Below, piece by piece: positions 3,050 through 39,380 of a stretch of DNA of 39,380 nt (the first letter of the stretch is position 1; each line of letters opens with the position of its first letter). The notes under the pieces are model-generated. The model saw nothing but the letters and a program-made list of their open reading frames with translations, had not been told where the DNA came from and searched no databases. The DNA comes from a virus, in the IMG/VR virus record IMGVR_UViG_3300045988_151958, positions 1 through 39,380 of that record. One strand, 5' to 3'. A program made the translations under genes and the position numbers.

Positions 3050-3079
3050 TTGACAGTTTTTGACAATGCACTCTATAGG
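3050..3079 (+). promoter_or_regulatory. candidate rightward promoter, TTGACA-18-TATAGG, with a second TTGACA at 3060
   Basis: TTGACA at 3050-3055 and 3060-3065, TATAGG at 3074-3079. Located in the AT-rich divergent control region upstream of the structural arm. Confidence 0.4.
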
Positions 3080-3122
3080 AAGACCATATAAAAAAAAAGT
3101 ACTTTCCAAACATTAGACCCCA
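3074..3122. repeat. AT-rich conserved block, copy A (second copy at 25573..25619)
   Basis: TATAGGAAGACCATATAAAAAAAAAGTACTTTCCAAACATTAGACCCCA aligns with TATAGAAGGACATATAAAAAGTATGCATTTTCACACCTTTGACCTCA. Confidence 0.65.
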
Positions 3123-3182
3123 TGTTAAATGTAACGACACACTTTTTAAATCGCTCAGAATCAATGACTTAGACGAAAATCC

Positions 3183-3230
3183 TGTTACAATTTAAGTTGT
3201 AACAAATCGTAAGCATACACTTTGTTACAA
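3183..3230. repeat. three copies of the octamer TGTTACAA (one inverted pair plus one direct copy)
   Basis: TGTTACAA at 3183-3190, TTGTAACA at 3197-3204 (forming a palindrome with a 6-nt spacer), TGTTACAA at 3223-3230. Confidence 0.6.
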
Positions 3231-3328
3231 CTTGAGAAGGGTTCGCAATTGGATGACCATGCTGTACGCACATCCAGTAGCAAGCGATCGCCGGCGGGCG
3301 GCCGCCGCAACGGCTGTGTGTGGCGGAA

Positions 3329-3366: not shown

Positions 3367-3825
3367 ATGAAACCTCCGCACCTGCCGCCCATCAATGAGA
3401 TGGCTCTACGCGAGCACCCGTGGCCCGACATCTTTCAGGGCGTGACCCTGGGCGAGTTTGTGGCCAGCTACCTGATCGACTACAACGGTCGGAAGGCGCT
3501 GCGTCGACTGGGCGTGTGGAAGGGGTGCGAGGCTCATGTGGCCGAGCTCCTGTTGGAGCGTGACGACGTCCAGAACGAGCTGTCGCTCCGTCAGCTGGAG
3601 GTCACCGAGGCCAACATGGCTGCCATCCGTGCGCGAGCCATGCAGGGGCTGTATCAACTGGCCCTCGGGGCTGAGTCAGAGTCTGTCCGTCTGCAGGCCC
3701 TGGGGCGTCTGCTGGATGTGACTGGCGGGGCTACCGCGAAGGTGGAGCAGATGGACCTGTCCGACACCGAGTCCACCCAGATCAAGGAGGCTCTGGCCGC
3801 CATCGGCAGGGCACCCGTCCTGTGA
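3367..3825 (+). CDS. terS: terminase small subunit (putative)
   Basis: 152 aa. FVASYLIDYNGRKALRRLGV resembles the Terminase_2 N-terminal signature. Lies immediately upstream of and overlaps terL. Confidence 0.65.
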   Translation: MKPPHLPPINEMALREHPWPDIFQGVTLGEFVASYLIDYNGRKALRRLGVWKGCEAHVAELLLERDDVQNELSLRQLEVTEANMAAIRARAMQGLYQLALGAESESVRLQALGRLLDVTGGATAKVEQMDLSDTESTQIKEALAAIGRAPVL

Positions 3826-5249
3826 AAGCCGATGCGCTCGCAACCCAGCTGCTCCGGGAGTACGCCACGCGGTCGCTCCGAAGCTTCGTGGGTGTCTTCT
3901 GGCCCGTGCTGGAGAATGACCGCCCAATCGCCTGGGGCTGGGCCCTTGACGCCATGTGCGAGCATCTGGAGGCCGTGTCTCGCGGGGAGATCACGCGGCT
4001 GGTGATCAACGTTCCACCGGGCTCGATGAAGTCCCTGCTGGTGAGCGTGATGTGGCCGGCCTGGGAGTGGGCTTGCGGTCGTCCGAACCTGAAGTTCATC
4101 GGCGTCGCGCACAACACGCAGCTCAGCGCCCGCGACGCCCGCAAGATGCGACGGCTGGTGCAGTCGCCTGAGTATCGTCAGCTGTTCCCGCACGTGGAGC
4201 TGACGAAGGACCAGAACAGCAAGATCAACTTCGAGACGACAGCCTATGGCCAGCGCGTGTGCATGGCATTCCGGAACATGACGGGCGAGCGGGGAGACCG
4301 TGTGATCATCGATGACCCGATGACCGTGGAGGACGCTTTCTCCCGGGCTGCCATCGAGGAGGCCGGCCGCATCTTCAATGAGACGGTACCAAGCCGTGTC
4401 AACGACAGCAAGTCGGCCATCGTGATGATCATGCAGCGCATCCACGAGTCGGACCCGGCTGCCATCGCCCTGTCCGACCCGGCCTACGAGAAGCTGATCA
4501 TCCCGATGCGCTGGGACTCGAAGTTCGTCAACAACACCGCCCGCTTCACGGACCCCCGGACCGGCGGGCCGGAGGGTGCCCTGTTCTTCCCGGAGCGATT
4601 CGACGCCGCCGCAGTCGAGGCACTGGAGCGCCGCCTCGGCCCCTACGGCTCAGCCAGCCAGCTCCAGCAGCAGCCGGCCCCGCGGTCGGGCGGATACCTT
4701 GATCCGACGAACATCGTGGTGGTGCCCGATGGCTCGATCCTGCCGCAGCTCCGCCTGTGTCGGGGCTGGGACCTAGCTGCTACGGAGGGGGCAGGCGACT
4801 ACACGGTGGGGGCGCTCGTGGGTATCCACGATGAGACCGGCCGCGTGTACCTGATGGACGTAGTCCGGGGCCAGTGGGGCTCTGCCAAGGTGGATGCGAC
4901 AATCAAGCGTGTGGCTGCCATGGATGGCCCGCTGGTGGAGCAATCACTGCCGATCGACCCGGGTGCTGCCGGCAAGCGGGCGGCAGACCAGTACGCGATC
5001 GCCCTGACTGGGTACGCCGTTCATACGTCGCGGGAAACCGGCGACAAGATGACTCGCGCCCGGCCGCTGTCCAGCATCGTGCAGGATGGGCGCTTCCACG
5101 TCGTCTGCTCGCCAGAGATGGCCCGTCCGGTGTTGGACGAGTTTGCCGCAGCTCCTGTCGGCAAGCACGATGATACAATTGACGCCATCTCGCGCGCCCT
5201 GAACCGTCTGACGGAGACGGCCGCGTTTCAACTGACGGGGCTCCTGTGA
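3822..5249 (+). CDS. terL: terminase large subunit
   Basis: 475 aa. Walker-A-like PPGSMKS, Walker-B-like RVIIDDP, C-terminal nuclease-type HDDTIDA. Start overlaps the terS stop. Confidence 0.85.
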   Translation: MKADALATQLLREYATRSLRSFVGVFWPVLENDRPIAWGWALDAMCEHLEAVSRGEITRLVINVPPGSMKSLLVSVMWPAWEWACGRPNLKFIGVAHNTQLSARDARKMRRLVQSPEYRQLFPHVELTKDQNSKINFETTAYGQRVCMAFRNMTGERGDRVIIDDPMTVEDAFSRAAIEEAGRIFNETVPSRVNDSKSAIVMIMQRIHESDPAAIALSDPAYEKLIIPMRWDSKFVNNTARFTDPRTGGPEGALFFPERFDAAAVEALERRLGPYGSASQLQQQPAPRSGGYLDPTNIVVVPDGSILPQLRLCRGWDLAATEGAGDYTVGALVGIHDETGRVYLMDVVRGQWGSAKVDATIKRVAAMDGPLVEQSLPIDPGAAGKRAADQYAIALTGYAVHTSRETGDKMTRARPLSSIVQDGRFHVVCSPEMARPVLDEFAAAPVGKHDDTIDAISRALNRLTETAAFQLTGLL

Positions 5250-22940: not shown

Positions 22941-22990
22941 GGTGCTACTCCTTTCATATTTGCCGCATTGCGGCGGTGTCGATGGGGTGA

Positions 22991-23019
22991 ACTATACGCT
23001 CACCCCATCCCGGGGTCAA
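22991..23019 (-). promoter_or_regulatory. sigma70-type promoter, TTGACC-17-TATAGT
   Basis: The reverse complement reads TTGACC (23019-23014), a 17-nt spacer, then TATAGT (22996-22991). It is intergenic. Confidence 0.65.
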
Positions 23020-23033
23020 CTGCCGTTCGTCGG

Positions 23034-23849
23034 TCAGATCGTCTTCAGCAGGTGCTTGCGTTTCTCACGCACCAGGAAGCGGGATTGGGACCAGCCGCCG
23101 CAGTCGGAGCAGCGGTACCGCTGGTAGCGGCCAGCCACAGTGGTGGTGAAGCCGCGGGGAACTACGTTGGCAGAGCCGCAGCGCGGGCAGTGGTGAACTT
23201 CCTCTTCCCGACCTTCGGACTGCGGCACCAGCCCGGCAAACTGCGGGCCACGCGCCCAGGGCAGGACACGGTTCAGCAGCTCGCACATGGCTTCCACGTC
23301 CATGTTGTTATAGAGCCGCATTTCCCGTTCGGCAGCCGGGTTGCGGTTCAGCCACTCGATCCAGAGCTGAAGCCCCGGGAACTTGCTGTGTGACCGCTTG
23401 GACCGTGCCTGATCCTTTGTCAGCCACGCCAGTTTGTACGAGGCCTGTCCGCCGATCTGGCGAGCCATCAGCATCGTGTCCAGAATCTTGGGCTTGGGCA
23501 GGGGCTTCAGGCCGCGGCGGTAGAAGGCTCCGTTGATCATCGGCCAGTCGAAGCGGGCGCCGTTGTGAGCGACCACGTGGGTGGCGTCCTTCAGAATCTC
23601 CCACAGGAGCGTGACCAGCTGTTTGTCGTCCCGCTGGTTGGCCTGCTCGAAGGTGGACATGTACTTGGCCTTCTTGACCTTGCCGTACTCCCACTCGGCC
23701 CAGCTGAATGAGATCAGGGTGGATTCCTGCTGGATGTGGTCGATGGTCAGGACCTGCTTGCCGGTGCGCCAGACGTAGGCGATACACGGGGCGGTCTCGA
23801 TGTCAAGGGCGATGACCTTCGGGCCATCATGGGGTTTGCGTTGTTTCAC
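23034..23849 (-). CDS. DnaQ/RNase-H-fold 3'-5' exonuclease with a C-terminal zinc ribbon
   Basis: 271 aa. Exo I VIALDIETAP, Exo II VVAHNGARFDWPM, and C-terminal CPRCGS...CSDCGG. Confidence 0.65.
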   Translation of the reverse strand: MKQRKPHDGPKVIALDIETAPCIAYVWRTGKQVLTIDHIQQESTLISFSWAEWEYGKVKKAKYMSTFEQANQRDDKQLVTLLWEILKDATHVVAHNGARFDWPMINGAFYRRGLKPLPKPKILDTMLMARQIGGQASYKLAWLTKDQARSKRSHSKFPGLQLWIEWLNRNPAAEREMRLYNNMDVEAMCELLNRVLPWARGPQFAGLVPQSEGREEEVHHCPRCGSANVVPRGFTTTVAGRYQRYRCSDCGGWSQSRFLVREKRKHLLKTI

Positions 23850-24660: not shown

Positions 24661-24689
24661 ATGATGAGCGATCGCGACCACGCCGTCAA
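24661..24689 (-). promoter_or_regulatory. candidate promoter, TTGACG-17-CATCAT
   Basis: The -35 contains the stop codon of 24686..25459. It is preceded by a CGACGAGCGGC motif at the same spacing as at 23019 and 36104. Confidence 0.4.
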
Positions 24690-25459
24690 CGGCCGCTCGT
24701 CGGGTTCCCGGCGGCGTTCTTGACCCAGGTCACGAAAGCCTCGATGGCCAGCCGCTGTGCAAGCAGTATGGACGGGTCGGCATCGTAGTCTGCCCGCACG
24801 CGAAGAATCTTCTTGACCGGGCTGCCGCGGGAGCCGTCTCCGTGCTCCGCGCCGCGCGTCAGGCGCCACCCCGGGGGTACGGGAGCCGTGCCCGACGACA
24901 TGGCCCTGCCGACCGCGCTGGCGGCCTTGTAGAGCACGCGATGACCCTTGTCTGTGGTGAGCGCCCAGTACAGGTCACGGCGGGGGCTGTGGGGCTTGTG
25001 TGGCTGTGGCTTGGCAGGTTGCTTGGGTTCGGCCGCCTTCTTGGCGGGTTCCTGGTACGCGGCCACAGGGTGGGACCAGCCGTCGGGACTGCCGGTGGCG
25101 AATGTGGATGCCTCGGCATACAGGCGAGCGCGCAGCTCGGCCACAGATGCCGCAACATCCCGTGGCATGCCTCGGCCATTTAGCCAGCCCTGTACACGGC
25201 GGCGGAGGGCACGGAGCAGGTCCCCATCGCTTCGTTTGGCCATCAGGCTCGGTCTGGGCTTGGCCAGGGTTGCAATCAGGGACTTGTTGCCATCCTCCAG
25301 GGCGTCCGGCCACAGGTTCAGCAAGACGACATGCCACCCGGTTGGTAGATCGCTTGATCTCGTTACGTACTTGCTTGCCGGCACACGGGATGCGTAAAGC
25401 ACGGATGTCGGAACAAGCACAGGGGTGGCAAGCAAGGGGGGTGTGGGGCTACGTGTCAT
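24686..25459 (-). CDS. hypothetical protein, first gene downstream of the origin-like region
   Basis: 257 aa with a strong AAGGAGG RBS. Basic, with a Pro/Lys/Ala linker. Confidence 0.6.
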   Translation of the reverse strand: MTRSPTPPLLATPVLVPTSVLYASRVPASKYVTRSSDLPTGWHVVLLNLWPDALEDGNKSLIATLAKPRPSLMAKRSDGDLLRALRRRVQGWLNGRGMPRDVAASVAELRARLYAEASTFATGSPDGWSHPVAAYQEPAKKAAEPKQPAKPQPHKPHSPRRDLYWALTTDKGHRVLYKAASAVGRAMSSGTAPVPPGWRLTRGAEHGDGSRGSPVKKILRVRADYDADPSILLAQRLAIEAFVTWVKNAAGNPTSGR

Positions 25460-25491
25460 GAGTGCCTCCTTGGGCGAGTTTTGACCCGGCC

Positions 25492-25520
25492 ATGGTACTA
25501 GCCCGGCGACGGGGTGTCAA
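25492..25520 (-). promoter_or_regulatory. sigma70-type promoter, TTGACA-17-TACCAT
   Basis: The reverse complement reads TTGACA (25520-25515), a 17-nt spacer, then TACCAT (25497-25492). The -35 abuts iteron 1. Confidence 0.5.
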
Positions 25521-25570
25521 CCAACTTAGTCATTACCCTCCCCAAAACCAACTTAGTCATTACCCTCCCC
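25519..25570. repeat. two direct 25-nt iterons, AACCAACTTAGTCATTACCCTCCCC
   Basis: Exact copies at 25519-25543 and 25546-25570 (27-nt period). Confidence 0.9.
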
Positions 25571-25572
25571 TT

Positions 25573-25619
25573 TATAGAAGGACATATAAAAAGTATGCAT
25601 TTTCACACCTTTGACCTCA
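25573..25619. repeat. AT-rich conserved block, copy B (see 3074..3122)
   Basis: Bracketed by iteron 2 and the inverted iteron 3. Confidence 0.65.
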
Positions 25620-25622
25620 CAA

Positions 25623-25643
25623 GGGAGGGTAATGACTAAGTTG
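25623..25643. repeat. inverted third iteron copy, GGGAGGGTAATGACTAAGTTG
   Basis: Exact reverse complement of the 21-nt iteron core CAACTTAGTCATTACCCTCCC. Confidence 0.9.
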
Positions 25644-25783
25644 TAGAATGGCTTGTAGAGCCAATCCCGGGTGTCGTACTTAGTGTTCACAAATTACTAT
25701 TCGACTCCCATCCCACAACTCTCAAAAATTAGTATTTACTTTGACCCTACTGCCAGTATGGGTAATTTCATGTTGGAACGGGC

Positions 25784-25807
25784 AAAAAAATAGCCCCCGA
25801 AGGGGCT
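25784..25807 (-). terminator. rho-independent terminator
   Basis: On the - strand, AGCCCC-TTCG-GGGGCT followed by ATTTTTTT. Confidence 0.8.
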
Positions 25808-25815
25808 CCGTAGCC

Positions 25816-25835
25816 TGTGGATAACCTGTGGATAA
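25816..25835. promoter_or_regulatory. two tandem perfect DnaA boxes
   Basis: TGTGGATAA at 25816-25824 and 25827-25835 is the reverse complement of the TTATCCACA consensus. Spacing is 11 bp. Confidence 0.7.
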
Positions 25836-25842
25836 CTCAGGT

Positions 25843-26325
25843 TCAGAAGGGCAGTTCTCCGGTCGAATCCGACCCATCTTCGGGCGGTGTGATCGCCCCT
25901 TTAGGCACTGTGATTGCATCCTCCGGGCGGGACTGGCCGGACCAGTCGGGGCTCCCCTCCGGGTTGTGTCGGGTCGGCCTCAGCGGGGCCGGATGGCCTG
26001 CCGGCCGGTCCTTGGATTGCGCCACCGTGTGCTCGCCATCAGAGGCCTGTGCCGCGCCCCGGATCAGCAGCATGGCACCCTTGGCTCCCAGCTCGCCGCC
26101 CATGTCCGCCTTCATGGCAGCCAGCAGCCGGCGGCAGTAGGCTGCCGACACGTGGATGCAGATCAGCTCTGCCTCATCGGGCGGTGTGGTCGATTCCTTC
26201 TCGATCCGGTACATCAGGGCGCCCGTGCCCGAATCGTGGTACTGGCACACCCGGCAGGCGCCAAAGTCCGGATCGCCTTCCTGGCCAGCCACAGGCGTGT
26301 CCGACGTCCAGTCGGTGGCGCTCAT
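25843..26325 (-). CDS. hypothetical protein with a disordered C-terminus ending in GELPF
   Basis: 160 aa. ATGA overlap with the upstream gene. The C-terminal third is Pro/Gly/Asp-rich. Confidence 0.55.
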   Translation of the reverse strand: MSATDWTSDTPVAGQEGDPDFGACRVCQYHDSGTGALMYRIEKESTTPPDEAELICIHVSAAYCRRLLAAMKADMGGELGAKGAMLLIRGAAQASDGEHTVAQSKDRPAGHPAPLRPTRHNPEGSPDWSGQSRPEDAITVPKGAITPPEDGSDSTGELPF

Positions 26326-27434: not shown

Positions 27435-28286
27435 TCACTTCTGCACGTTGACCGTCAGGTTGACCTGGGGCCGCGAGCACACGTCGCAGACGGGCTTGGC
27501 TTTCGGCGCCACCGGCTTCCGCTTCGGCTGAGGCTTGACCTTGGGCAGCTCCGCCTGCTTCGGCACGATCTCGTAGGCCACGCACTCCTGCAGGCGGATC
27601 GTGGTCACCATCCGCTGCAGGGCCCCGCCGTGGCTGCCGCCGATGGAGCCGCCCTGCCCGCTGCCGCCATTGGCCCCAAAGGCCAGCGCCCCGGACGTGG
27701 AGACCGTCAGGACGGTAGTCGTCTCGTGCATCTTGTGGCCGATCAGCTGGGTCAGCTGGCCGGGGATTACTTCCACGCGGCGGTACGGTTCCTCGAAGTT
27801 CGGCGCCAGCCACTGGTTCTGCCCCAGGGTCACCTCCGAGTCCCAGAGGATGCCGATCACACGGCCCTGCACGTCATGGGACATCACCCGCTGGCGCGGG
27901 CCGCAGTAGGGGTCGGCCACGCGGCTAATCTCAGCCGAGGGGGCAACCATGGCGGCGGCAGGCACCGTGACCGGGTTGATATTGAGCGACTTGCCGTTGT
28001 ACGAGTACCCACCAGTGGTCAGGTTGGTCTGCGTGGTTGCGGCGAAGCTGCCCACGCTGCCCCCCGTGGCCGTCTGCCCCTGCTGCTGGCCTTGCTGCTG
28101 CTGTGCGTGGGCCTCCGGGTTGACGCCGTTGACCGAGGCCACCGGGGCGTTGGTTGTGTTGGTGGTCTTGTTGTCACTGTTGGTCTTGCAGGCGTTGACG
28201 CCCACGCAGTCAGCGCCCGGGGTATTGGTGGCCAGGGCCGGGGCGGCGATCAGGGCCAGGGACAGGGCGAGGATGGTCTTTTTCAT
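27435..28286 (-). CDS. exported protein with a Gln/Gly-rich segment, unknown function
   Basis: 283 aa from the ATG at 28286. Signal peptide MKKTILALSLALIAAPALA, a QQQQGQQQGQ tract, and a Lys/Pro-rich C-terminus. Confidence 0.6.
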   Translation of the reverse strand: MKKTILALSLALIAAPALATNTPGADCVGVNACKTNSDNKTTNTTNAPVASVNGVNPEAHAQQQQGQQQGQTATGGSVGSFAATTQTNLTTGGYSYNGKSLNINPVTVPAAAMVAPSAEISRVADPYCGPRQRVMSHDVQGRVIGILWDSEVTLGQNQWLAPNFEEPYRRVEVIPGQLTQLIGHKMHETTTVLTVSTSGALAFGANGGSGQGGSIGGSHGGALQRMVTTIRLQECVAYEIVPKQAELPKVKPQPKRKPVAPKAKPVCDVCSRPQVNLTVNVQK

Positions 28287-28381
28287 GGTTGCTTGCTCCG
28301 AAGATTGCCGCTTCGTTGCGGCGATGGGTGATTGTTTCCTTGTTTGCCACGTTGTTAAGCCCTGTGGCAAGGCTTGTTGTG

Positions 28382-28714
28382 TCATTTGATCAGATGCGGC
28401 AGAAGTCTTTGGAGTTGGTCGAGTTTGTTTGGGGATTTCTGAAGGAAGAACTCTGCTGCCGCCAGCGTCGTATTCCGGCCATACTTTGCATTTCGAATAA
28501 CCATTGTATAGCGGTCTTTGTAGTGGAAGAAAACCGAGTCTTCGTCCTTGTAAACCGCCAGTGTAGCCCTGTTACCAAATTCATCAACATTAACCACTTC
28601 TTCGGACACCTTCTCGCCGTTCCCGGTCGCGTGCTCAATGTGTATTTGCGCGTTCTTTTTGGTTTCCAGTGCGCTACTGGTGTAGACGTTGATCGTGAAT
28701 TCTTCCGTGAACAT
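28382..28714 (-). CDS. hypothetical protein encoded in an AT-richer segment (moron-like)
   Basis: 110 aa, Lys/Glu/Asn-rich. It has its own promoter at 28766. Confidence 0.55.
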   Translation of the reverse strand: MFTEEFTINVYTSSALETKKNAQIHIEHATGNGEKVSEEVVNVDEFGNRATLAVYKDEDSVFFHYKDRYTMVIRNAKYGRNTTLAAAEFFLQKSPNKLDQLQRLLPHLIK

Positions 28715-28765
28715 GATTTAATCCTCTTGGCCATCGGCCGGCATTATTGCCTGCCGATGGAGTGA

Positions 28766-28794
28766 ACTGTACTTCATTGGGTGTTGCTAATCAA
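28766..28794 (-). promoter_or_regulatory. sigma70-type promoter, TTGATT-17-TACAGT
   Basis: Exact 17-nt spacer. It shares the TCACTCCATCGGC downstream sequence with the promoters at 2875 and 22991. Confidence 0.55.
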
Positions 28795-30129: not shown

Positions 30130-31536
30130 TCAGACCACGGTCAGGCCCGCGATCCGGCGCGGAGCGGCCCCGTTGATGGCGGCCTGGCATTCATCCGTCC
30201 ACAGGGTCAGCTTGCCCGTGGAGGCCGAGGCCCGCACGGTCAGCCCGCCTACGGCCCGGTTTCCGATCAGCTCCGTACCCAGCAGGTCGCTTGTCACGCC
30301 CAGCGGCTCATCCGGCGTGTACCGGGCCGAGTAGCCGGGCGTGACCTGGGGCGTCTTCTTCCAGGACTGGTCCACCTCGATGTGGGCGGCCCGGAACGGC
30401 CCGGACAGGATGTTGCCCCGCACCTCGGTCGACTGTGCGTCGTTGCCCACGTAGACGTGTGCCTGTGGCGTGCCTGCAGCCCCGATGGTGACCGTGTTGT
30501 TGCTAATCTCGATCTCACGAGTGCCGCAGTAGGCCTGCAGGGCGGCCTGACCCTCTGCGGCGCTGCTGACTGCGTGGTTGCCCGTCACAACGATGCCGCG
30601 GCTGCCGTAGGCCGTGTGGACGGCAGATGACTTGAAGTCAGCGATGACGTTGTGCGAGACCGTGACCCCTGTGGTGGTGTCCTGACAGGAAACACCCCGC
30701 ATCTGGCCCATCAGGGTGTTGCCCGACACGATGCCGCCTTCCACAGCCGACATCTCGATGCCGTAGTAGCCACCCTGGATCGTGCAACCCTGGATATCGA
30801 CCGGGCCGCAAGGCATCAGCACGCCCACCGGGGTCTTGTTGGCCGTCCACCATGCCCGCTGATTGCCCGCCAGCGTGCCGCGGAGGCTGATGGCCGGGAT
30901 GCCCTCCCCGCCCGTGGGCTGGTTGCGCTCATCATCCATCAGGAACCAGGAGTCACGAGCCACGAGGCCACCGGCCTTCACGTCCCTGGTCGATGTGATG
31001 CTGACGCACCGCCCGCGGCCGGCCGGGGTGCCGAAGTCGCCCGGACCTGCCCCGATGACGCGGGTCACGTTCTTCGGCTGCCCGGCAAAAATGCAGTTCT
31101 CCAGTACGATCAGCCCCTTGTTTGCGTGGCCGTGCAGGAGCGCCTCCTGTTGCTCCGTGGCCGTGCCCAACAGGATGAAGATGCAGTCCCGGAACACGAG
31201 ATCGTTCTCTCGATCCCGGGGCAGGATGGCGCACCGGGCCGCGGTCTGCGGCTCGATGACGAACACGCCGCCGCGGACCTCGGTCACGTTGTCATGGACG
31301 GTCAGCTGCTGACCGCGGAAGTGGAACAGCAGGCCGCTGCAGTCCATGATCGTGCCGGGCTGGCTGGCTTCCATCTGGTTACGGAGCACCGTGATGGATT
31401 GCGGGGCATCCACCTTCCACCCACCGTGGCCGCCCGTGGCCTTGCGGAGCCGGGGCGGGATGATGGGCTGAAGCGGCGGCAGTGCCGGAGTGAGGGAAAG
31501 CGCCATGCTTCCGTCAGGCGCTGTGGTCTGGAACAT
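30130..31536 (-). CDS. right-handed parallel beta-helix repeat protein
   Basis: 468 aa from the ATG at 31536 (GGAGG RBS). Repeated xxGNxh turns: VSGNTLMG, VSHNVIAD, VTGNHAVS, ISNNTVTI, VRGNILSG, LIGNRAVG. Confidence 0.65.
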   Translation of the reverse strand: MFQTTAPDGSMALSLTPALPPLQPIIPPRLRKATGGHGGWKVDAPQSITVLRNQMEASQPGTIMDCSGLLFHFRGQQLTVHDNVTEVRGGVFVIEPQTAARCAILPRDRENDLVFRDCIFILLGTATEQQEALLHGHANKGLIVLENCIFAGQPKNVTRVIGAGPGDFGTPAGRGRCVSITSTRDVKAGGLVARDSWFLMDDERNQPTGGEGIPAISLRGTLAGNQRAWWTANKTPVGVLMPCGPVDIQGCTIQGGYYGIEMSAVEGGIVSGNTLMGQMRGVSCQDTTTGVTVSHNVIADFKSSAVHTAYGSRGIVVTGNHAVSSAAEGQAALQAYCGTREIEISNNTVTIGAAGTPQAHVYVGNDAQSTEVRGNILSGPFRAAHIEVDQSWKKTPQVTPGYSARYTPDEPLGVTSDLLGTELIGNRAVGGLTVRASASTGKLTLWTDECQAAINGAAPRRIAGLTVV

Positions 31537-31549
31537 CGAGGAGCCTCCG

Positions 31550-33322
31550 TTAACGGTTTTGCAAAGAGACACACCACTGGTCAAACTGCTCAATTGTAAC
31601 CGCGTCGCCACCCAGTTTCCGCTTGAGCATGGCTACCACATTGGGCAACAGGTGGCCGTACTGGCAGCCCACGCCGGCGGCCGTGGCCGCCCGGGTCAGT
31701 GCTGCGGGTTCAACCGGGATGTTCAGCACCAGCCGCCGGACCATGCCGCGAAGCTGGGGTGTGCTGGTCACGGGCCACCACACGTCAGCCGTGGCTGGCT
31801 CAGTCTTCGGAATGCCGATCTTGGCGTAGTCGCCTGACGTGTCCAGCAGCACCGTGGTCGGCTTGGTGCCGTTGGCCATGATGGCGTCAACCATGGCCGA
31901 AGCTTGTCCCCACTGGATTCCCAGCCGGGCCGCCCATCGGTCGTTCATCAACAGGCTGATGCGGTCGGTCCAGGACACACGGCACCACTGCCGCCCTTCG
32001 CGATCCATGACGATTCGGGCCGCGCGTGTGGACGGCAGGATGCACGGTGCCTTGCCCTCCATCTTGCGGCCGGCGAAGACTGACATCGGCGGCTCGCCGT
32101 TGGCCACCACGTTCTCGCGCTTGGCCACCACGGGAAATTCGTAGCCACACACAGGGCATTGCCGCTGGCTGGCGCTGCACTCGTGCTCGCAGACGGGGCA
32201 ATGCTTCTTGACTGCCTCGCCGGCGCCCCTTTCCTTCGGCCTCGGGATGATCGGATTGTCGATCGGGCCGCAGCGCTCCGTGTTGCCGGTGAAGTCCAGT
32301 ACCAGACCGTCAACCTTGTCCGGGTGCACGCGAGTCAGGCGGCCAAGCATCTGCACCCACAGGGCCGAGGCCAGTGTGGGGCGGAAGCATACCAGGACGT
32401 CAATGTCCGGCACGTCAAAACCCGTGGTCAGGGCTGAGACGCTGACCATCCAGCGGAAGGCGTTCTTGTTCCGGAAGGCGTCGATGAGCCCCTTCCGCTC
32501 GCCCTTCGGGGTCTTGCCCGTGATGATCTCGGCTGTCTCGCCCATACTTCGCAGCATGCCGACGATCATCTCTGCCGTGTGGACGGTCGGGGTGAAGACA
32601 ATGCCCTTGCGGCGACCCATGGAGGCCTGCAGCATCTCCGGGATCAGGGACGGGAGCAGTGGCTCGATCTTGTGGGCAAATGACTCCTCGCTGTAGTCCC
32701 CGTTCGAGGCAATGGTGACGCCGCCCATGCTGACCACGGAGGTGGGGCCTGGCACGAGCTGGGACAGGTAGCCGTTGGACAGCAGCCGCGCAAACGCCTC
32801 GGGCGTGCCTGCCGAGTAGATTTCATCCTCGAACACACCGCGTCCGATCAGTGGGCCATCCATTCGCCAGGGTGTGGCAGACAGGCCGATCAACTGGCAC
32901 TCCGGGTTCACCTTCCGGATGCTGGCCAGAAGCTTGCCGTACATGGTGTCAGGCCTCTCGGACACCAGGTGGCACTCGTCGATGATCACCAGGTCAAACC
33001 GGCCCATGGCTTCGGCGTGACGAAAGGCCGTCCCCACGGAGCAGACAACGACGCGGGCGTCCCAGTCCTTCTTTCCAACCGAGGCGGACACGATGCCGAC
33101 GTGCTCGGACACTTCCCGGGCGATAGCTTGGCCGTTCTGACGCACCAGGTCGCCGCTGTGGATGGCATTCAGGACGCGGCCGCCCTGCTGCAGGACGTGG
33201 GCGGCGATTCTGGCGATGACGACACTCTTGCCCGCCCCGGTGGGCAGGTTGATGACCCCTGCCCTGCCCGTGTAGGCAATAGCCGCGTCCACGGCCTCCT
33301 GTTGGTACCAGCGTAGTTCCAT
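31550..33322 (-). CDS. SF2 DEAD/DEAH-box DNA helicase with a zinc ribbon and C-terminal extension
   Basis: 590 aa from the ATG at 33322 (AAGGAG RBS). LRWYQ, PTGAGKS, IIDECH, SATP, TTGFD and QMLGRLTR motifs, plus CPVCEHEC...CPVCG. Confidence 0.85.
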   Translation of the reverse strand: MELRWYQQEAVDAAIAYTGRAGVINLPTGAGKSVVIARIAAHVLQQGGRVLNAIHSGDLVRQNGQAIAREVSEHVGIVSASVGKKDWDARVVVCSVGTAFRHAEAMGRFDLVIIDECHLVSERPDTMYGKLLASIRKVNPECQLIGLSATPWRMDGPLIGRGVFEDEIYSAGTPEAFARLLSNGYLSQLVPGPTSVVSMGGVTIASNGDYSEESFAHKIEPLLPSLIPEMLQASMGRRKGIVFTPTVHTAEMIVGMLRSMGETAEIITGKTPKGERKGLIDAFRNKNAFRWMVSVSALTTGFDVPDIDVLVCFRPTLASALWVQMLGRLTRVHPDKVDGLVLDFTGNTERCGPIDNPIIPRPKERGAGEAVKKHCPVCEHECSASQRQCPVCGYEFPVVAKRENVVANGEPPMSVFAGRKMEGKAPCILPSTRAARIVMDREGRQWCRVSWTDRISLLMNDRWAARLGIQWGQASAMVDAIMANGTKPTTVLLDTSGDYAKIGIPKTEPATADVWWPVTSTPQLRGMVRRLVLNIPVEPAALTRAATAAGVGCQYGHLLPNVVAMLKRKLGGDAVTIEQFDQWCVSLQNR

Positions 33323-35324: not shown

Positions 35325-35353
35325 ACTATACGCCGGTCACTCCTGGTTATCAA
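35325..35353 (-). promoter_or_regulatory. sigma70-type promoter, TTGATA-17-TATAGT
   Basis: Exact 17-nt spacer. It overlaps the stop codon of the lipoprotein gene. Confidence 0.5.
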
Positions 35354-36029
35354 GACCGTTTGTCAGGCCGAAGGGCAGATCAGTGGTCAGCGAGTACTGC
35401 CGGAACATGAAGCCGCAGTAGCCCTTCTCCAGGCACTGACGGGGCGTGCCCTCCGTGCCGGATGTGCCGTTGACCAGTGCCCAGTAGCCGTAGGCCTGGC
35501 CGGTGCACATGGCTTTGGCATCGGCGGCCTTCCAGTCGGCGTAGGAGCGGAAGGATTTGACCGTTTCGGCGTGGCAGCGATCGGCGTCCTTCTTGACCCA
35601 GGCGTCCACACCTTCGCCCATCTCAGCGGCCAACTCGGCTTTCAGGGATTCGCCAACCATCTGGTACTCAACGATGGCGCGAGCAACGCCCATGTTCAGG
35701 TACTTCAGGTCACGATCCAAGACCGGTTCTTCTTCGGCTTTCGGCGCCGTGAAGGGCAGCGGCTCAGTGTCGGCCACGGGGTCATTGAAACTGTGCGAGG
35801 CAGCCGGGTCGATCTTCGGAGCTTCGGGTTCCGGCAGAGGCTCGGGCTTCACTTCCGGGGCCTGCTCGACTGCGGCAGGCAGCGTGGTCGGGGGCAGGTC
35901 CGTGGAAGCGGGTTGCTGGGCTTCCGGGGTGGCTTGCTGAGCGACCTGGACTGGGGCTTGCGATTCGCCGGCGGAGCCACAGGCGGCCAGGATGGAGGTC
36001 AAGGCGAGGGCGAGGATGGTGCGTTTCAT
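35337..36029 (-). CDS. lipoprotein, unknown function
   Basis: 230 aa. MKRTILALALTSILAACGS has a signal peptide plus a lipobox (LAAC), followed by a Pro/Glu/Ala-rich linker and a Cys-containing globular C-terminus. Confidence 0.7.
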   Translation of the reverse strand: MKRTILALALTSILAACGSAGESQAPVQVAQQATPEAQQPASTDLPPTTLPAAVEQAPEVKPEPLPEPEAPKIDPAASHSFNDPVADTEPLPFTAPKAEEEPVLDRDLKYLNMGVARAIVEYQMVGESLKAELAAEMGEGVDAWVKKDADRCHAETVKSFRSYADWKAADAKAMCTGQAYGYWALVNGTSGTEGTPRQCLEKGYCGFMFRQYSLTTDLPFGLTNGLDNQE

Positions 36030-36075
36030 GATTGTTTCCTTGAGGTTGCTGGCTGTCGTTCAGCCCATGGACAGA

Positions 36076-36104
36076 ACTATACGCCTGCCCATGGTGTGGG
36101 TCAA
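36076..36104 (-). promoter_or_regulatory. sigma70-type promoter, TTGACC-17-TATAGT
   Basis: The reverse complement has an exact 17-nt spacer. It is intergenic, upstream of the lipoprotein gene. Confidence 0.65.
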
Positions 36105-36114
36105 ATGCCGTTCG

Positions 36115-36798
36115 TCACTCCGACGGACGGTTGATGCGCTCGATGATCTTGCAGATGTTGGCCGGGCACAGTTCGGGAAGCTTGCCGCTGCGGTCCTTGG
36201 CCGTGAACGTGCCGTCCGGAACGAAGCGGAGGGTCCGGCGATGCGAGACCGTGCCGTCTTCCTTCTGAACCGTGTCAACCACAAGGCGGCCCACCAGGTC
36301 GAGCAGGTACGGCAGCTTGTCGCTGAACTTCTGCCCCGGTACCAGTGGTGCGTAAGACTTGCGGCCAGCGTCATCGGTCACAGTGGTCTGCTTGGCAATC
36401 CAGATGACGGAGCACGGCAGCTCACGGAGCTGGCGAATCAGGCGTGTGACCGCCGATTCCATCTCGGGGTAGACTTTCCGCGGATCAGGGGTCTTCTGCA
36501 TCAGGTCGGCCAGCACGATCTCGGCAATCTCGGACAATGAGTCGAAGATGATCGTGCCGTACTCGGCAGCGTGCTGCGTGGCGTACTTGACCGCCTCGCG
36601 GGCCGTCTTGATGTCCGTGACCTCGATGTAGGGGACGTCAGCCCCTTGCAGGGACATCAGGCCGCCTTCAGCACTGATTACCAACGGGCGGTCACAGGTC
36701 AGCGCCAGACGGGTCTTGCCTGCACCGGATTCGCCGTAGATCAGGGCGTTGATCTTGCCGGAGTCGTATAGGGTGTTGGTATTCTTGATCATGGTCAT
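36115..36798 (-). CDS. AAA_24 / Sak4-like RecA-fold ATPase
   Basis: 227 aa with Walker A ALIYGESGAGKT. Typical size and position next to the SSB and nuclease genes. Confidence 0.7.
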   Translation of the reverse strand: MTMIKNTNTLYDSGKINALIYGESGAGKTRLALTCDRPLVISAEGGLMSLQGADVPYIEVTDIKTAREAVKYATQHAAEYGTIIFDSLSEIAEIVLADLMQKTPDPRKVYPEMESAVTRLIRQLRELPCSVIWIAKQTTVTDDAGRKSYAPLVPGQKFSDKLPYLLDLVGRLVVDTVQKEDGTVSHRRTLRFVPDGTFTAKDRSGKLPELCPANICKIIERINRPSE

Positions 36799-38830: not shown

Positions 38831-39380
38831 TTAGACGCTGTACATGCTGGGGTTGTAGGGGGTCATCAGCAGGTAGGCGAGGCCGCCGCCTTGCTTGCCG
38901 ATCTTGATCTTGCGGATCACGCCAAAGTCCCGCTCCATCACGGCCAGCACGCGGCTGATCATCAGACGGTCATCCTGGCCGGCCTTCTTGATGATGCGGC
39001 TCAGCTTCGGGTTGCGGGCCACGATGGTCTGAATCAGCGAGGCGGGCAGCATGTTCTCGGTCGGCAGGTCCTGTGGCTGCAGGCCGTGCAGCAGCTCGCT
39101 ACGAGGGTTCGTAGTGACATCGGTCATGCAGCGGTGCAGGGTCTCGCTGACGAGCGTGCTGGTCGACTTGTCGGCCTCGGCGATGTCCTGGCGCATCAGC
39201 TCCAGGTGCTTGGCCACGAACTGGATAGCCCAGGCTGCGATGTCCTCGGTTATCTGTGGTGCCATCGTGTTGTTGATGATCGCCACAGCCGTGGCCAGGC
39301 GCTCCACACGGGCGTGCACACGGGCAGCGGCGTCAGCCAGCGTCTGCTTACCGGACCGCCTCCATGCAACCGCCTGACGG
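38831..39380 (-). CDS. C-terminal part of the same prim-pol/helicase gene (total about 871 aa after removing the 55-nt overlap)
   Basis: The track ORF 38831..39319 begins at an internal GTG. Reading ...KQTLADAAARVHARVERLATAV is continuous across the junction and the frame is preserved (2121 is divisible by 3; 39325 and 39319 are in phase). Confidence 0.75.
   Translation of the reverse strand, partial: RQAVAWRRSGKQTLADAAARVHARVERLATAVAIINNTMAPQITEDIAAWAIQFVAKHLELMRQDIAEADKSTSTLVSETLHRCMTDVTTNPRSELLHGLQPQDLPTENMLPASLIQTIVARNPKLSRIIKKAGQDDRLMISRVLAVMERDFGVIRKIKIGKQGGGLAYLLMTPYNPSMYSV
39326..39380. repeat. second copy of the 55-nt terminal overlap
   Basis: Exact match to bases 1-55. Confidence 0.95.

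Follow-up and report, generated by a model that had tools for sequence, protein, structure and literature searches.

The window, which is the whole stretch of 39,380 nucleotides of viral DNA analyzed here (positions 1 to 39,380 of IMG/VR record IMGVR_UViG_3300045988_151958), has a GC content of approximately 63%. Its bases 1-55 are identical to bases 39326-39380, which shows that the assembly is circular and the genome, at 39,325 bp, complete. The structural genes, including that of the tail sheath, occupy the + strand from approximately 3.4 to 22.9 kb. The replication and nucleotide-metabolism genes are located on the - strand, from approximately 2.1 kb backwards over the junction to 23.0 kb. 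The phage is apparently virulent and myovirus-like. A 383-bp gap (25460-25842) separates the - strand open reading frames (ORFs) p160 and p257, both of which are backed by codon-position GC. Together with p257, the gap constitutes an origin-like module surrounded by the genes of a helicase, Cas4 exonuclease, Sak4, dNMP kinase, and exonuclease. The genes downstream of the gap are p257, p99, dNMP kinase, and exonuclease.

Anatomy of the intergenic module

The features of the module, in the order in which they follow one another on the coding strand up to the Shine-Dalgarno sequence and ATG of p257, are:

25843-26325, - strand: p160, a 160-residue ORF from the ORF list with a frame signal in third-codon-position GC (GC3); TGA stop at 25843-25845
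25816-25835, - strand: pair of perfect DnaA boxes, TTATCCACA-GG-TTATCCACA, repeated head to tail every 11 bp and pointing to the iteron field
25784-25807, - strand: intrinsic terminator with the stem AGCCCC-TTCG-GGGGCT at 25792-25807 and a run of seven T at 25784-25790
25745-25762, no strand assigned: another short hairpin (or palindrome), noticed by eye when the relatives were aligned
25678-25741, - strand: two conserved blocks, AAGTAAATACTAATTTTTGAGA and AATAGTAATTTGTGAACACTAAGT, each with the ACTAA core of the iteron, from the alignment of 15 variants
25643-25671, - strand: conserved 29-mer CCCGGGATTGGCTCTACAAGCCATTCTAC; 15 of 15 window-type variants agree in 24 of its bases, which served as the search pattern
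25623-25643, + strand: inverted iteron, an exact 21-nt copy, GGGAGGGTAATGACTAAGTTG
25571-25622, no strand assigned: conserved AT-rich block of 52 bp with a GC content of 0.35, conserved across variants; candidate unwinding element
25519-25543 and 25546-25570, - strand: two exact direct iterons of 25 nt, GGGGAGGGTAATGACTAAGTTGGTT, one starting 27 bp after the other
25492-25520, - strand: sigma-70-like promoter of p257, TTGACA-17-TACCAT
25465-25487, - strand: 5' leader that contains a conserved block, GGGTCAAAACTCGCCC, as well as the Shine-Dalgarno sequence AAGGAGG
24686-25459, - strand: p257, an orphan protein of 257 residues with a GC3 signal and the strong ribosome-binding site AAGGAGG; proposed iteron-binding, lineage-specific initiator

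The DnaA boxes are non-random and unique in the genome. On the coding strand, the TGA stop of p160 is followed by 7 nt, two copies of GTTATCCACAG, and the terminator, which places the boxes between the p160 stop codon and the intrinsic terminator. The + strand reads TGTGGATAA at 25816-25824 and 25827-25835, and the coding strand reads TTATCCACA. A first-pass annotation, prepared from the letters of the window, had described these two boxes, 11 bp apart between a gene stop and its terminator, and had reported no others. Both statements hold: these are the only perfect DnaA boxes in the genome (0.09 expected; two or more in 0 of 100 shuffles), and a genome scan for TTWTNCACA matched the same two sites only (0.65 expected). 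The hairpin at 25745-25762 differs in sequence among relatives (L001-L025) with its pairing kept, and is not followed by a T-run on either strand.

The direct 25-nt and inverted 21-nt iterons listed in the same annotation are exact and lie where it had placed them, 60-185 bp upstream of the p257 start codon. They bracket the AT-rich block at 25571-25622. Allowing up to three mismatches, the 16-nt iteron core matches these three sites only in the whole genome (0.06 expected). The protein that binds the iteron is therefore not a global regulator. The AT-rich stretch, also noted before, is present and is AT-rich in relative terms, with a GC content of 0.33-0.45 across 25520 to 25780 (approximately 260 bp) against approximately 0.63 for the genome. 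Of the six 40-bp windows of the genome with the highest AT content, two fall in this zone, and the block at 25571-25622 contains the one ranked third. The blocks AAGTAAATACTAATTTTTGAGA and AATAGTAATTTGTGAACACTAAGT may, from their shared core, be degenerate extra iterons.

The 29-mer CCCGGGATTGGCTCTACAAGCCATTCTAC holds the palindrome GATTGGCT-N5-AGCCATTC (25646-25666), and its 5' CCCGG differs in two of the 15 window-type variants. The palindrome is perfect in the divergent genome L169, and its TGGCT-N5-AGCCA core is present in L167, in both cases in the opposite orientation. The + strand of the 29-mer contains TAGAAT, a possible divergent -10 element, although one with no usable -35 hexamer. 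The promoter-proximal iteron shares 2 nt with the -35 hexamer of the p257 promoter.

Conservation of the DnaA boxes and co-diversification of iterons with p257

The relatives compared are 21 distinct versions from oral metagenomes: 15 window-type versions and the divergent genomes L164, L166, L167, L168, L169, and L172. The window-type intergenic versions were gathered by pattern and protein searches and then aligned, and the divergent genomes were found by anchoring on the conserved exonuclease gene. In line with the origin that the first-pass annotation had proposed, all of the relatives but L172, which lacks the boxes, carry both boxes and iterons, the latter belonging to differing families. 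Two or three perfect boxes are present in the same place and the same orientation in 20 of the 21, in a layout of stop codon, about 5-10 nt, boxes, about 4-8 nt, hairpin, and a T-run of 5-8. The boxes of these 20 are invariant though the surrounding sequence drifts, and the gaps between them are 2-3 bp. Three tandem boxes occur in 6 of the 21 relatives (5 of the 15 window-type versions). The stem of the terminator varies in sequence with its pairing retained, as in GAACCCC/GGGGTTC and GAGCCCG/CGGGCTC.

The divergent genomes L164, L166, L167, L168, and L169 keep the stop codon, two perfect boxes, terminator, repeat field, and a gene of the p257 family, most of them with a promoter. TTGAC-type promoters were found by pattern in L166, L167, L169, and L172, and none was found in L164 and L168. 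The promoter hexamers are kept in the window-type variants, with a variable spacer and, in one variant, a -35 hexamer shifted by one base. L164 and L168 have an extra third box, inverted, inside the iteron field, which argues for joint action of boxes and iterons.

The window-type iterons form sequence classes, between which the inverted copy varies in step with the direct ones. The distant lineages have unrelated iteron families in both orientations, with four to at least ten copies over 300-450 bp, so that the number of copies ranges from three in the window to at least ten. The distant families comprise at least ten copies of AATTTGCTAAAAGT, six copies of AATCCTTAAGTGGG, four copies of TATCCTTAAGTCA, and CATGTAACTTACCC arranged around a 38-nt palindrome. 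In L164 (positions 547-623) and at the equivalent site of L168, the iterons are arranged as a 38-nt near-perfect palindrome with an AT-rich center. The inverted third box of these two genomes (L164:697 and L168:1687) lies within a second long inverted repeat (CTTGGGCGCTCTACTT ... AAGTAGAGCGCCCAAG).

The p257 protein diversifies with the iterons. Between iteron families, p257-family proteins are 21-31% identical, and the exonucleases encoded two genes downstream are 82-93% identical for every pair of genomes. L164 and L168 share the same iterons and have p257 proteins that are 81% identical. The p257 proteins of L166 and L172 (TTGCTAAAAGT and CTGCTAAAAG iterons) are 58% identical, and those of L167 and L169, which have the iteron core CCTTAAGT in common, are 39% identical. 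The similarity of p257 thus tracks that of the iterons and not that of the genome backbone, of which L172 is the outgroup. This signal became clear only once the more divergent lineages were compared. Within the window-type group, the N-terminal and middle segments of p257, considered as a specificity code, are a mosaic with no clean map onto the iteron classes. The contig of a more distant p257 relative ends 76 nt upstream of the gene. These comparisons support the view that the repeats behave like binding sites of a co-evolving protein, for which p257 is clearly the best candidate.

The 136 homologs of p257 all belong to this phage clade. More than 100 homologs were placed, all of them on contigs of approximately 38-40 kb from human oral metagenomes. 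An exhaustive HMMER search of 1.84 billion representatives retrieved only 18 clusters. p257 had no match passing the curated cut-offs of Pfam, PHROG, and NCBIfam, ten representatives of its clusters had no Pfam match near the cut-off, and a profile search of PDB sequences found nothing. Foldseek searches with two AlphaFold2 (AF2) models (predicted local distance difference test scores of 74 and 79) gave no match at E<=0.001, the best values being 0.05 in BFVD and 0.3 in the PDB. As the AF2/Foldseek, PDB profile, Pfam, PHROG, NCBIfam, and HMMER searches were all negative, p257 was rejected as a Rep-like protein. The primase-helicase was also rejected as the iteron binder: its C-terminal half is 53-100% identical per 40-residue block in the divergent lineages and has no segment that falls to the 21-31% seen for p257.

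A proposed iteron-type origin and its alternatives

The comparisons support the view that the region is a conserved, specialized cis-acting module with the anatomy of an iteron-type origin. We propose, with a probability of roughly 0.55, that it is an iteron-type origin whose initiator, p257, is specific to the lineage, and to which DnaA commonly lends help that is not essential. The origin-like architecture described in the first-pass annotation is confirmed, and its reading as an origin is partly supported. That annotation overlooked p257, the likely key player, and proposed the recruitment of host DnaA. L172 keeps the iterons and the gene without the boxes, and DnaA would therefore be at most a helper and not the defining initiator.

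We infer the binding events, the opening of the AT block, the acting helicase and polymerase, and replication itself, as follows. p257, expressed from its own promoter, would bind the lineage-specific iterons, one inverted and two direct, that flank the 52-bp AT-rich block. Host DnaA would occupy the two high-affinity boxes approximately 175-300 bp away, just upstream of the terminator, which would shield the origin against incoming transcription. p257 and DnaA would jointly open the AT-rich DNA, a helicase, either the phage prim-pol-helicase or host DnaB, would be loaded, and priming would start. By binding to the iteron that abuts the -35 hexamer, p257 might also autoregulate its own expression.

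Rep-bound iterons occur together with DnaA boxes and an AT-rich unwinding element in iteron plasmids such as P1, F, RK2, and pSC101, and in some iteron plasmids DnaA merely stimulates replication or is required in a host-dependent manner (PMC4980987). The latter would accommodate the box-less L172. The module resembles iteron theta origins (P1 oriR/RepA, pSC101 ori/RepA, RK2 oriV/TrfA, and F ori2/RepE) in having boxes at the edge, an AT-rich segment, and iterons, with the putative initiator gene adjoining the iterons and a repeat overlapping its promoter. The consensus boxes have a fixed position (L172 excepted) and the iterons are present in several copies. Unlike the initiators of these origins, p257 has neither the winged-helix (WH1-WH2) Rep signature nor a fold match. 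Other differences are the 25-nt iterons with 27-bp spacing and one copy inverted across the AT block, the terminator between the boxes and the rest, and the apparently virulent myovirus-like carrier.

The module shares with the lambdoid ori and its initiator O a candidate phage-encoded initiator and lineage-specific iterons by an AT-rich region. Specificity modules of lambdoid phages are swapped between otherwise similar phages. However, the lambda iterons are inside the O gene, whereas those described here are upstream of p257, and no homology of p257 to O was detected. In origins of the type found in Staphylococcus aureus pathogenicity islands (SaPI) and P4, iterons flank an AT-rich region and are bound by Rep or a primase-helicase. 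The oppositely oriented repeats around an AT-rich core, and a specificity that differs among related elements, are common to these origins and the module; the variable partner here, however, is a separate 257-residue protein and not the primase-helicase.

Several observations weigh against an iteron-type origin at this site. L172 has an iteron field and a p257-family gene and lacks both the DnaA box and the terminator. In the window, the terminator separates the boxes from the AT-rich DNA. No 13-mer or DnaA-trio repeats were seen by eye, with no dedicated search run; by the trio criteria as generally described for chromosomal oriC-type unwinding, the boxes point at a GC-rich hairpin and then an A/T run, which is the tail of the terminator. 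The 27-bp spacing of the iterons is atypical, plasmid iterons being typically spaced by approximately 22 bp; spacing of 26-28 bp and mixed orientation are likewise atypical. p257 has no sequence or predicted-fold likeness to winged-helix Rep or to any DNA-binding fold, and we therefore infer its DNA binding from linkage only. The covariation of p257 with the iterons is no proof of interaction, because adjacency alone would cause them to be inherited together. The cumulative GC skew, put forward in the first-pass annotation as a check, proved uninformative: its small local peak at approximately 25.5 kb does not stand out, and gene orientation confounds it. The AT content of the genome is highest elsewhere, at 3050-3240, in a stretch that bears repeats and could be a pac/cos site or an alternative, real origin. 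It is situated between the primase promoter and the small terminase gene (terS), reaches up to 75% AT in 40 bp, and contains the repeated palindromic motifs TGTTACAA / TTGTAACA. Finally, conserved pairs of DnaA boxes lie away from the origins in T5-like phages, in the injection-stop region, for which a tether role was proposed (10.1101/866236).

The region might instead be one of transcriptional control, which we consider unlikely. p257 would then be an autoregulator or operon regulator, and DnaA would tune termination or read-through before the downstream genes. The expression of p257, p99, dNMP kinase, and exonuclease would in this way be tied to the DnaA status of the host. Such a role would agree with the conserved sigma-70-like promoter directly after the iterons, the 2-nt overlap of one iteron with the -35 hexamer, an iteron-like copy in L164 that appears, by eye, to overlap the promoter region, and the position of the boxes inside a transcription unit with a stop codon on one side and a terminator on the other. 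DnaA is known also as a transcription factor, including at lambda pR. However, the iterons occur at no other promoter, and the six to at least ten copies over 300-450 bp in L166, L167, and L172 are excessive for autoregulation. In L167 and L172 the iteron fields end approximately 35-65 nt upstream of the -35 hexamer, and p257 matches neither helix-turn-helix (HTH) nor any other regulator fold. Diversification of specificity among near-identical lytic genomes would be odd for a regulator of four housekeeping-type genes and typical of initiator-origin pairs. Iteron fields of such a length are far beyond the needs of an operator, and the module of 25460-25842 with p257 fits an iteron-type origin better than a promoter-operator region.

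It is quite improbable that the boxes form a DnaA sink or tether independent of the iterons, either titrating host DnaA, which would block re-initiation, or anchoring phage DNA to membrane-bound DnaA. The precedent is the conserved paired boxes in a non-origin region of 25 T5-like phages (10.1101/866236). T5 has eight boxes, in pairs 3 bp apart, located in inverted repeats of the terminal repeat and away from the origins (10.1101/866236). The module resembles the T5 injection-stop region in its paired consensus boxes and long non-coding repeat-rich region in a lytic phage. It differs in having two or three head-to-tail boxes with gaps of 2-3 bp, which adjoin an iteron field and lie among the replication genes. 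The two boxes of the window, whose assembly is circular, are 2 bp apart and not in inverted repeats. Tandem perfect boxes are common in diverse viral contigs, often not beside recognizable replication genes, and L172 demonstrates that boxes and iteron field are separable, both of which are consistent with a sink or tether. Against it stand the small size of a sink of two or three boxes, the fixed position and orientation of the boxes relative to the iteron field in 20 variants, the extra box inside that field in two lineages, and the absence of any sign of two-step injection in the myovirus-like genome.

Least probable is another p257-bound cis site (centromere-like, packaging-recognition, or recombination hotspot) in which boxes and terminator would simply form the conserved border of a cassette that can be swapped. 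Arrays of direct and inverted repeats, with a small protein encoded alongside as their binder, are indeed features of parC/ParR-type centromeres and of some pac sites, and the cassette boundaries coincide with conserved sequence, but no integrase or partition (ParA-/ParM-type ATPase) family is among the 25 listed of 96 matched PHROG families, the terminase genes (3367-5249) are approximately 17 kb away around the circular genome, the AT-rich repeats by terS are a better pac/cos candidate, and the perfect conservation of high-affinity boxes would be left unexplained.

At least 120 other IMG/VR viral contigs (L026-L145) contain the exact tandem TTATCCACA-NN-TTATCCACA, against three for a scrambled control of the same composition. 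The GC content of the contigs with the tandem spans 0.32 to 0.67. Most of the tandems are intergenic, many of them within clusters of 3-8 boxes, and the flanking ORFs include AAA_25, PriCT_2, Toprim_3, Prim-Pol, and HTH_36, as well as terminases and ParB-like proteins. Judged from these contigs, tandem high-affinity DnaA boxes are a recurrent phage feature. Discussions of host DnaA mostly concern plasmids, P1, and lambda rather than lytic tailed phages, and to our knowledge the origins of most uncultured phages are unknown. We tentatively speculate that one clade of virulent phages of oral bacteria starts replication with an unrecognized, structurally novel initiator, p257, which is swapped between nearly identical genomes as a unit with its iteron cassette. 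The cassette would be docked on a portable landing pad for DnaA, made of tandem R1/R4-type boxes, that many unrelated lineages of phages also use. If so, the hijacking of host DnaA by lytic phages would be far more common than currently appreciated.

The module thus has the architecture of an iteron-type origin, with an orphan putative initiator, in an apparently virulent phage. If the iteron-type origin is real, p257 would represent a new initiator family without a known fold, and the initiator and iteron cassettes swapped between genomes approximately 90% identical elsewhere would provide a natural series of specificity swaps. Together with the at least 120 other contigs, it would point to a widespread dependence of phages on host DnaA, which could matter for host range, the timing between phage and host, and the engineering of phage replicons.

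Primase and other features of the genome

The protein that the first-pass annotation had called a primase-helicase is a prim-pol-like protein of 871 residues that spans the junction (2121 -> 38831), its ORF being split by the arbitrary start point of the assembly. It has a weak match to the helix-bundle domain (HBD) of the NrS-1 prim-pol and a match to phrog_8643, "DNA polymerase/primase". Its relatives, in phages of Proteobacteria, are only approximately 30% identical over about a third of the protein, in the N-terminal part. The former statement that the phage encodes no DNA polymerase is therefore doubtful, and the argument that host Pol III would have to be recruited is weak because the primase is prim-pol-like. 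The phage also encodes an exonuclease that belongs to the "DNA polymerase exonuclease subunit" family. The single-stranded DNA-binding protein (SSB) named in the same annotation corresponds to a DUF669 match 0.3 bits below the Pfam cut-off.

Among 50,697 phage records, the locus had no megablast match and p257 no tblastn match, and searches for the 24-mer pattern and the exonuclease in 185,579 species genomes (host/prophage) were likewise negative. Rfam returned only spurious microRNA-hairpin matches at the locus, caused by the inverted repeat, and no match at gathering score in the whole window, in which no tRNAs were found. p160 has no match in Pfam, PHROG, or NCBIfam and is kept in the relatives with 51-92% identity.

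The - strand carries up to four copies of a promoter cassette, TTGAC(A/C)-17-TATAGT, with conserved downstream sequence (GCGTATAGTTCACTCCATCGAC...), at 2853-2883, 22969-23038, 28744-28774, and 36054-36123, probably an early promoter family of the phage. Of the four, the one at 28744-28774 diverges most and did not receive a promoter call. The - strand stretch at 2121-2907 extends from a strong promoter (TTGACA-17-TATAGT, approximately 2907-2879) to the start of the 871-residue primase. It comprises approximately 650-750 GC-rich nucleotides without a convincing ORF or Rfam match, and may be a long structured leader or a non-coding RNA.

A beta-helix/NosD-like, tail-spike-like protein of 493 residues is encoded at 30130-31611 on the - strand, amid the replication cluster, between the genes of a helicase and a C5-methyltransferase, and is kept in the relatives. 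Two - strand ORFs of 316 and 230 residues (27435-28385 and 35337-36029) begin with similar lipoprotein-like signal peptides, the DNA of which is 77% identical (repeat D7). The pair gives a hint that the host is Gram-negative and that a gene for a secreted protein or lipoprotein was duplicated within the early region.

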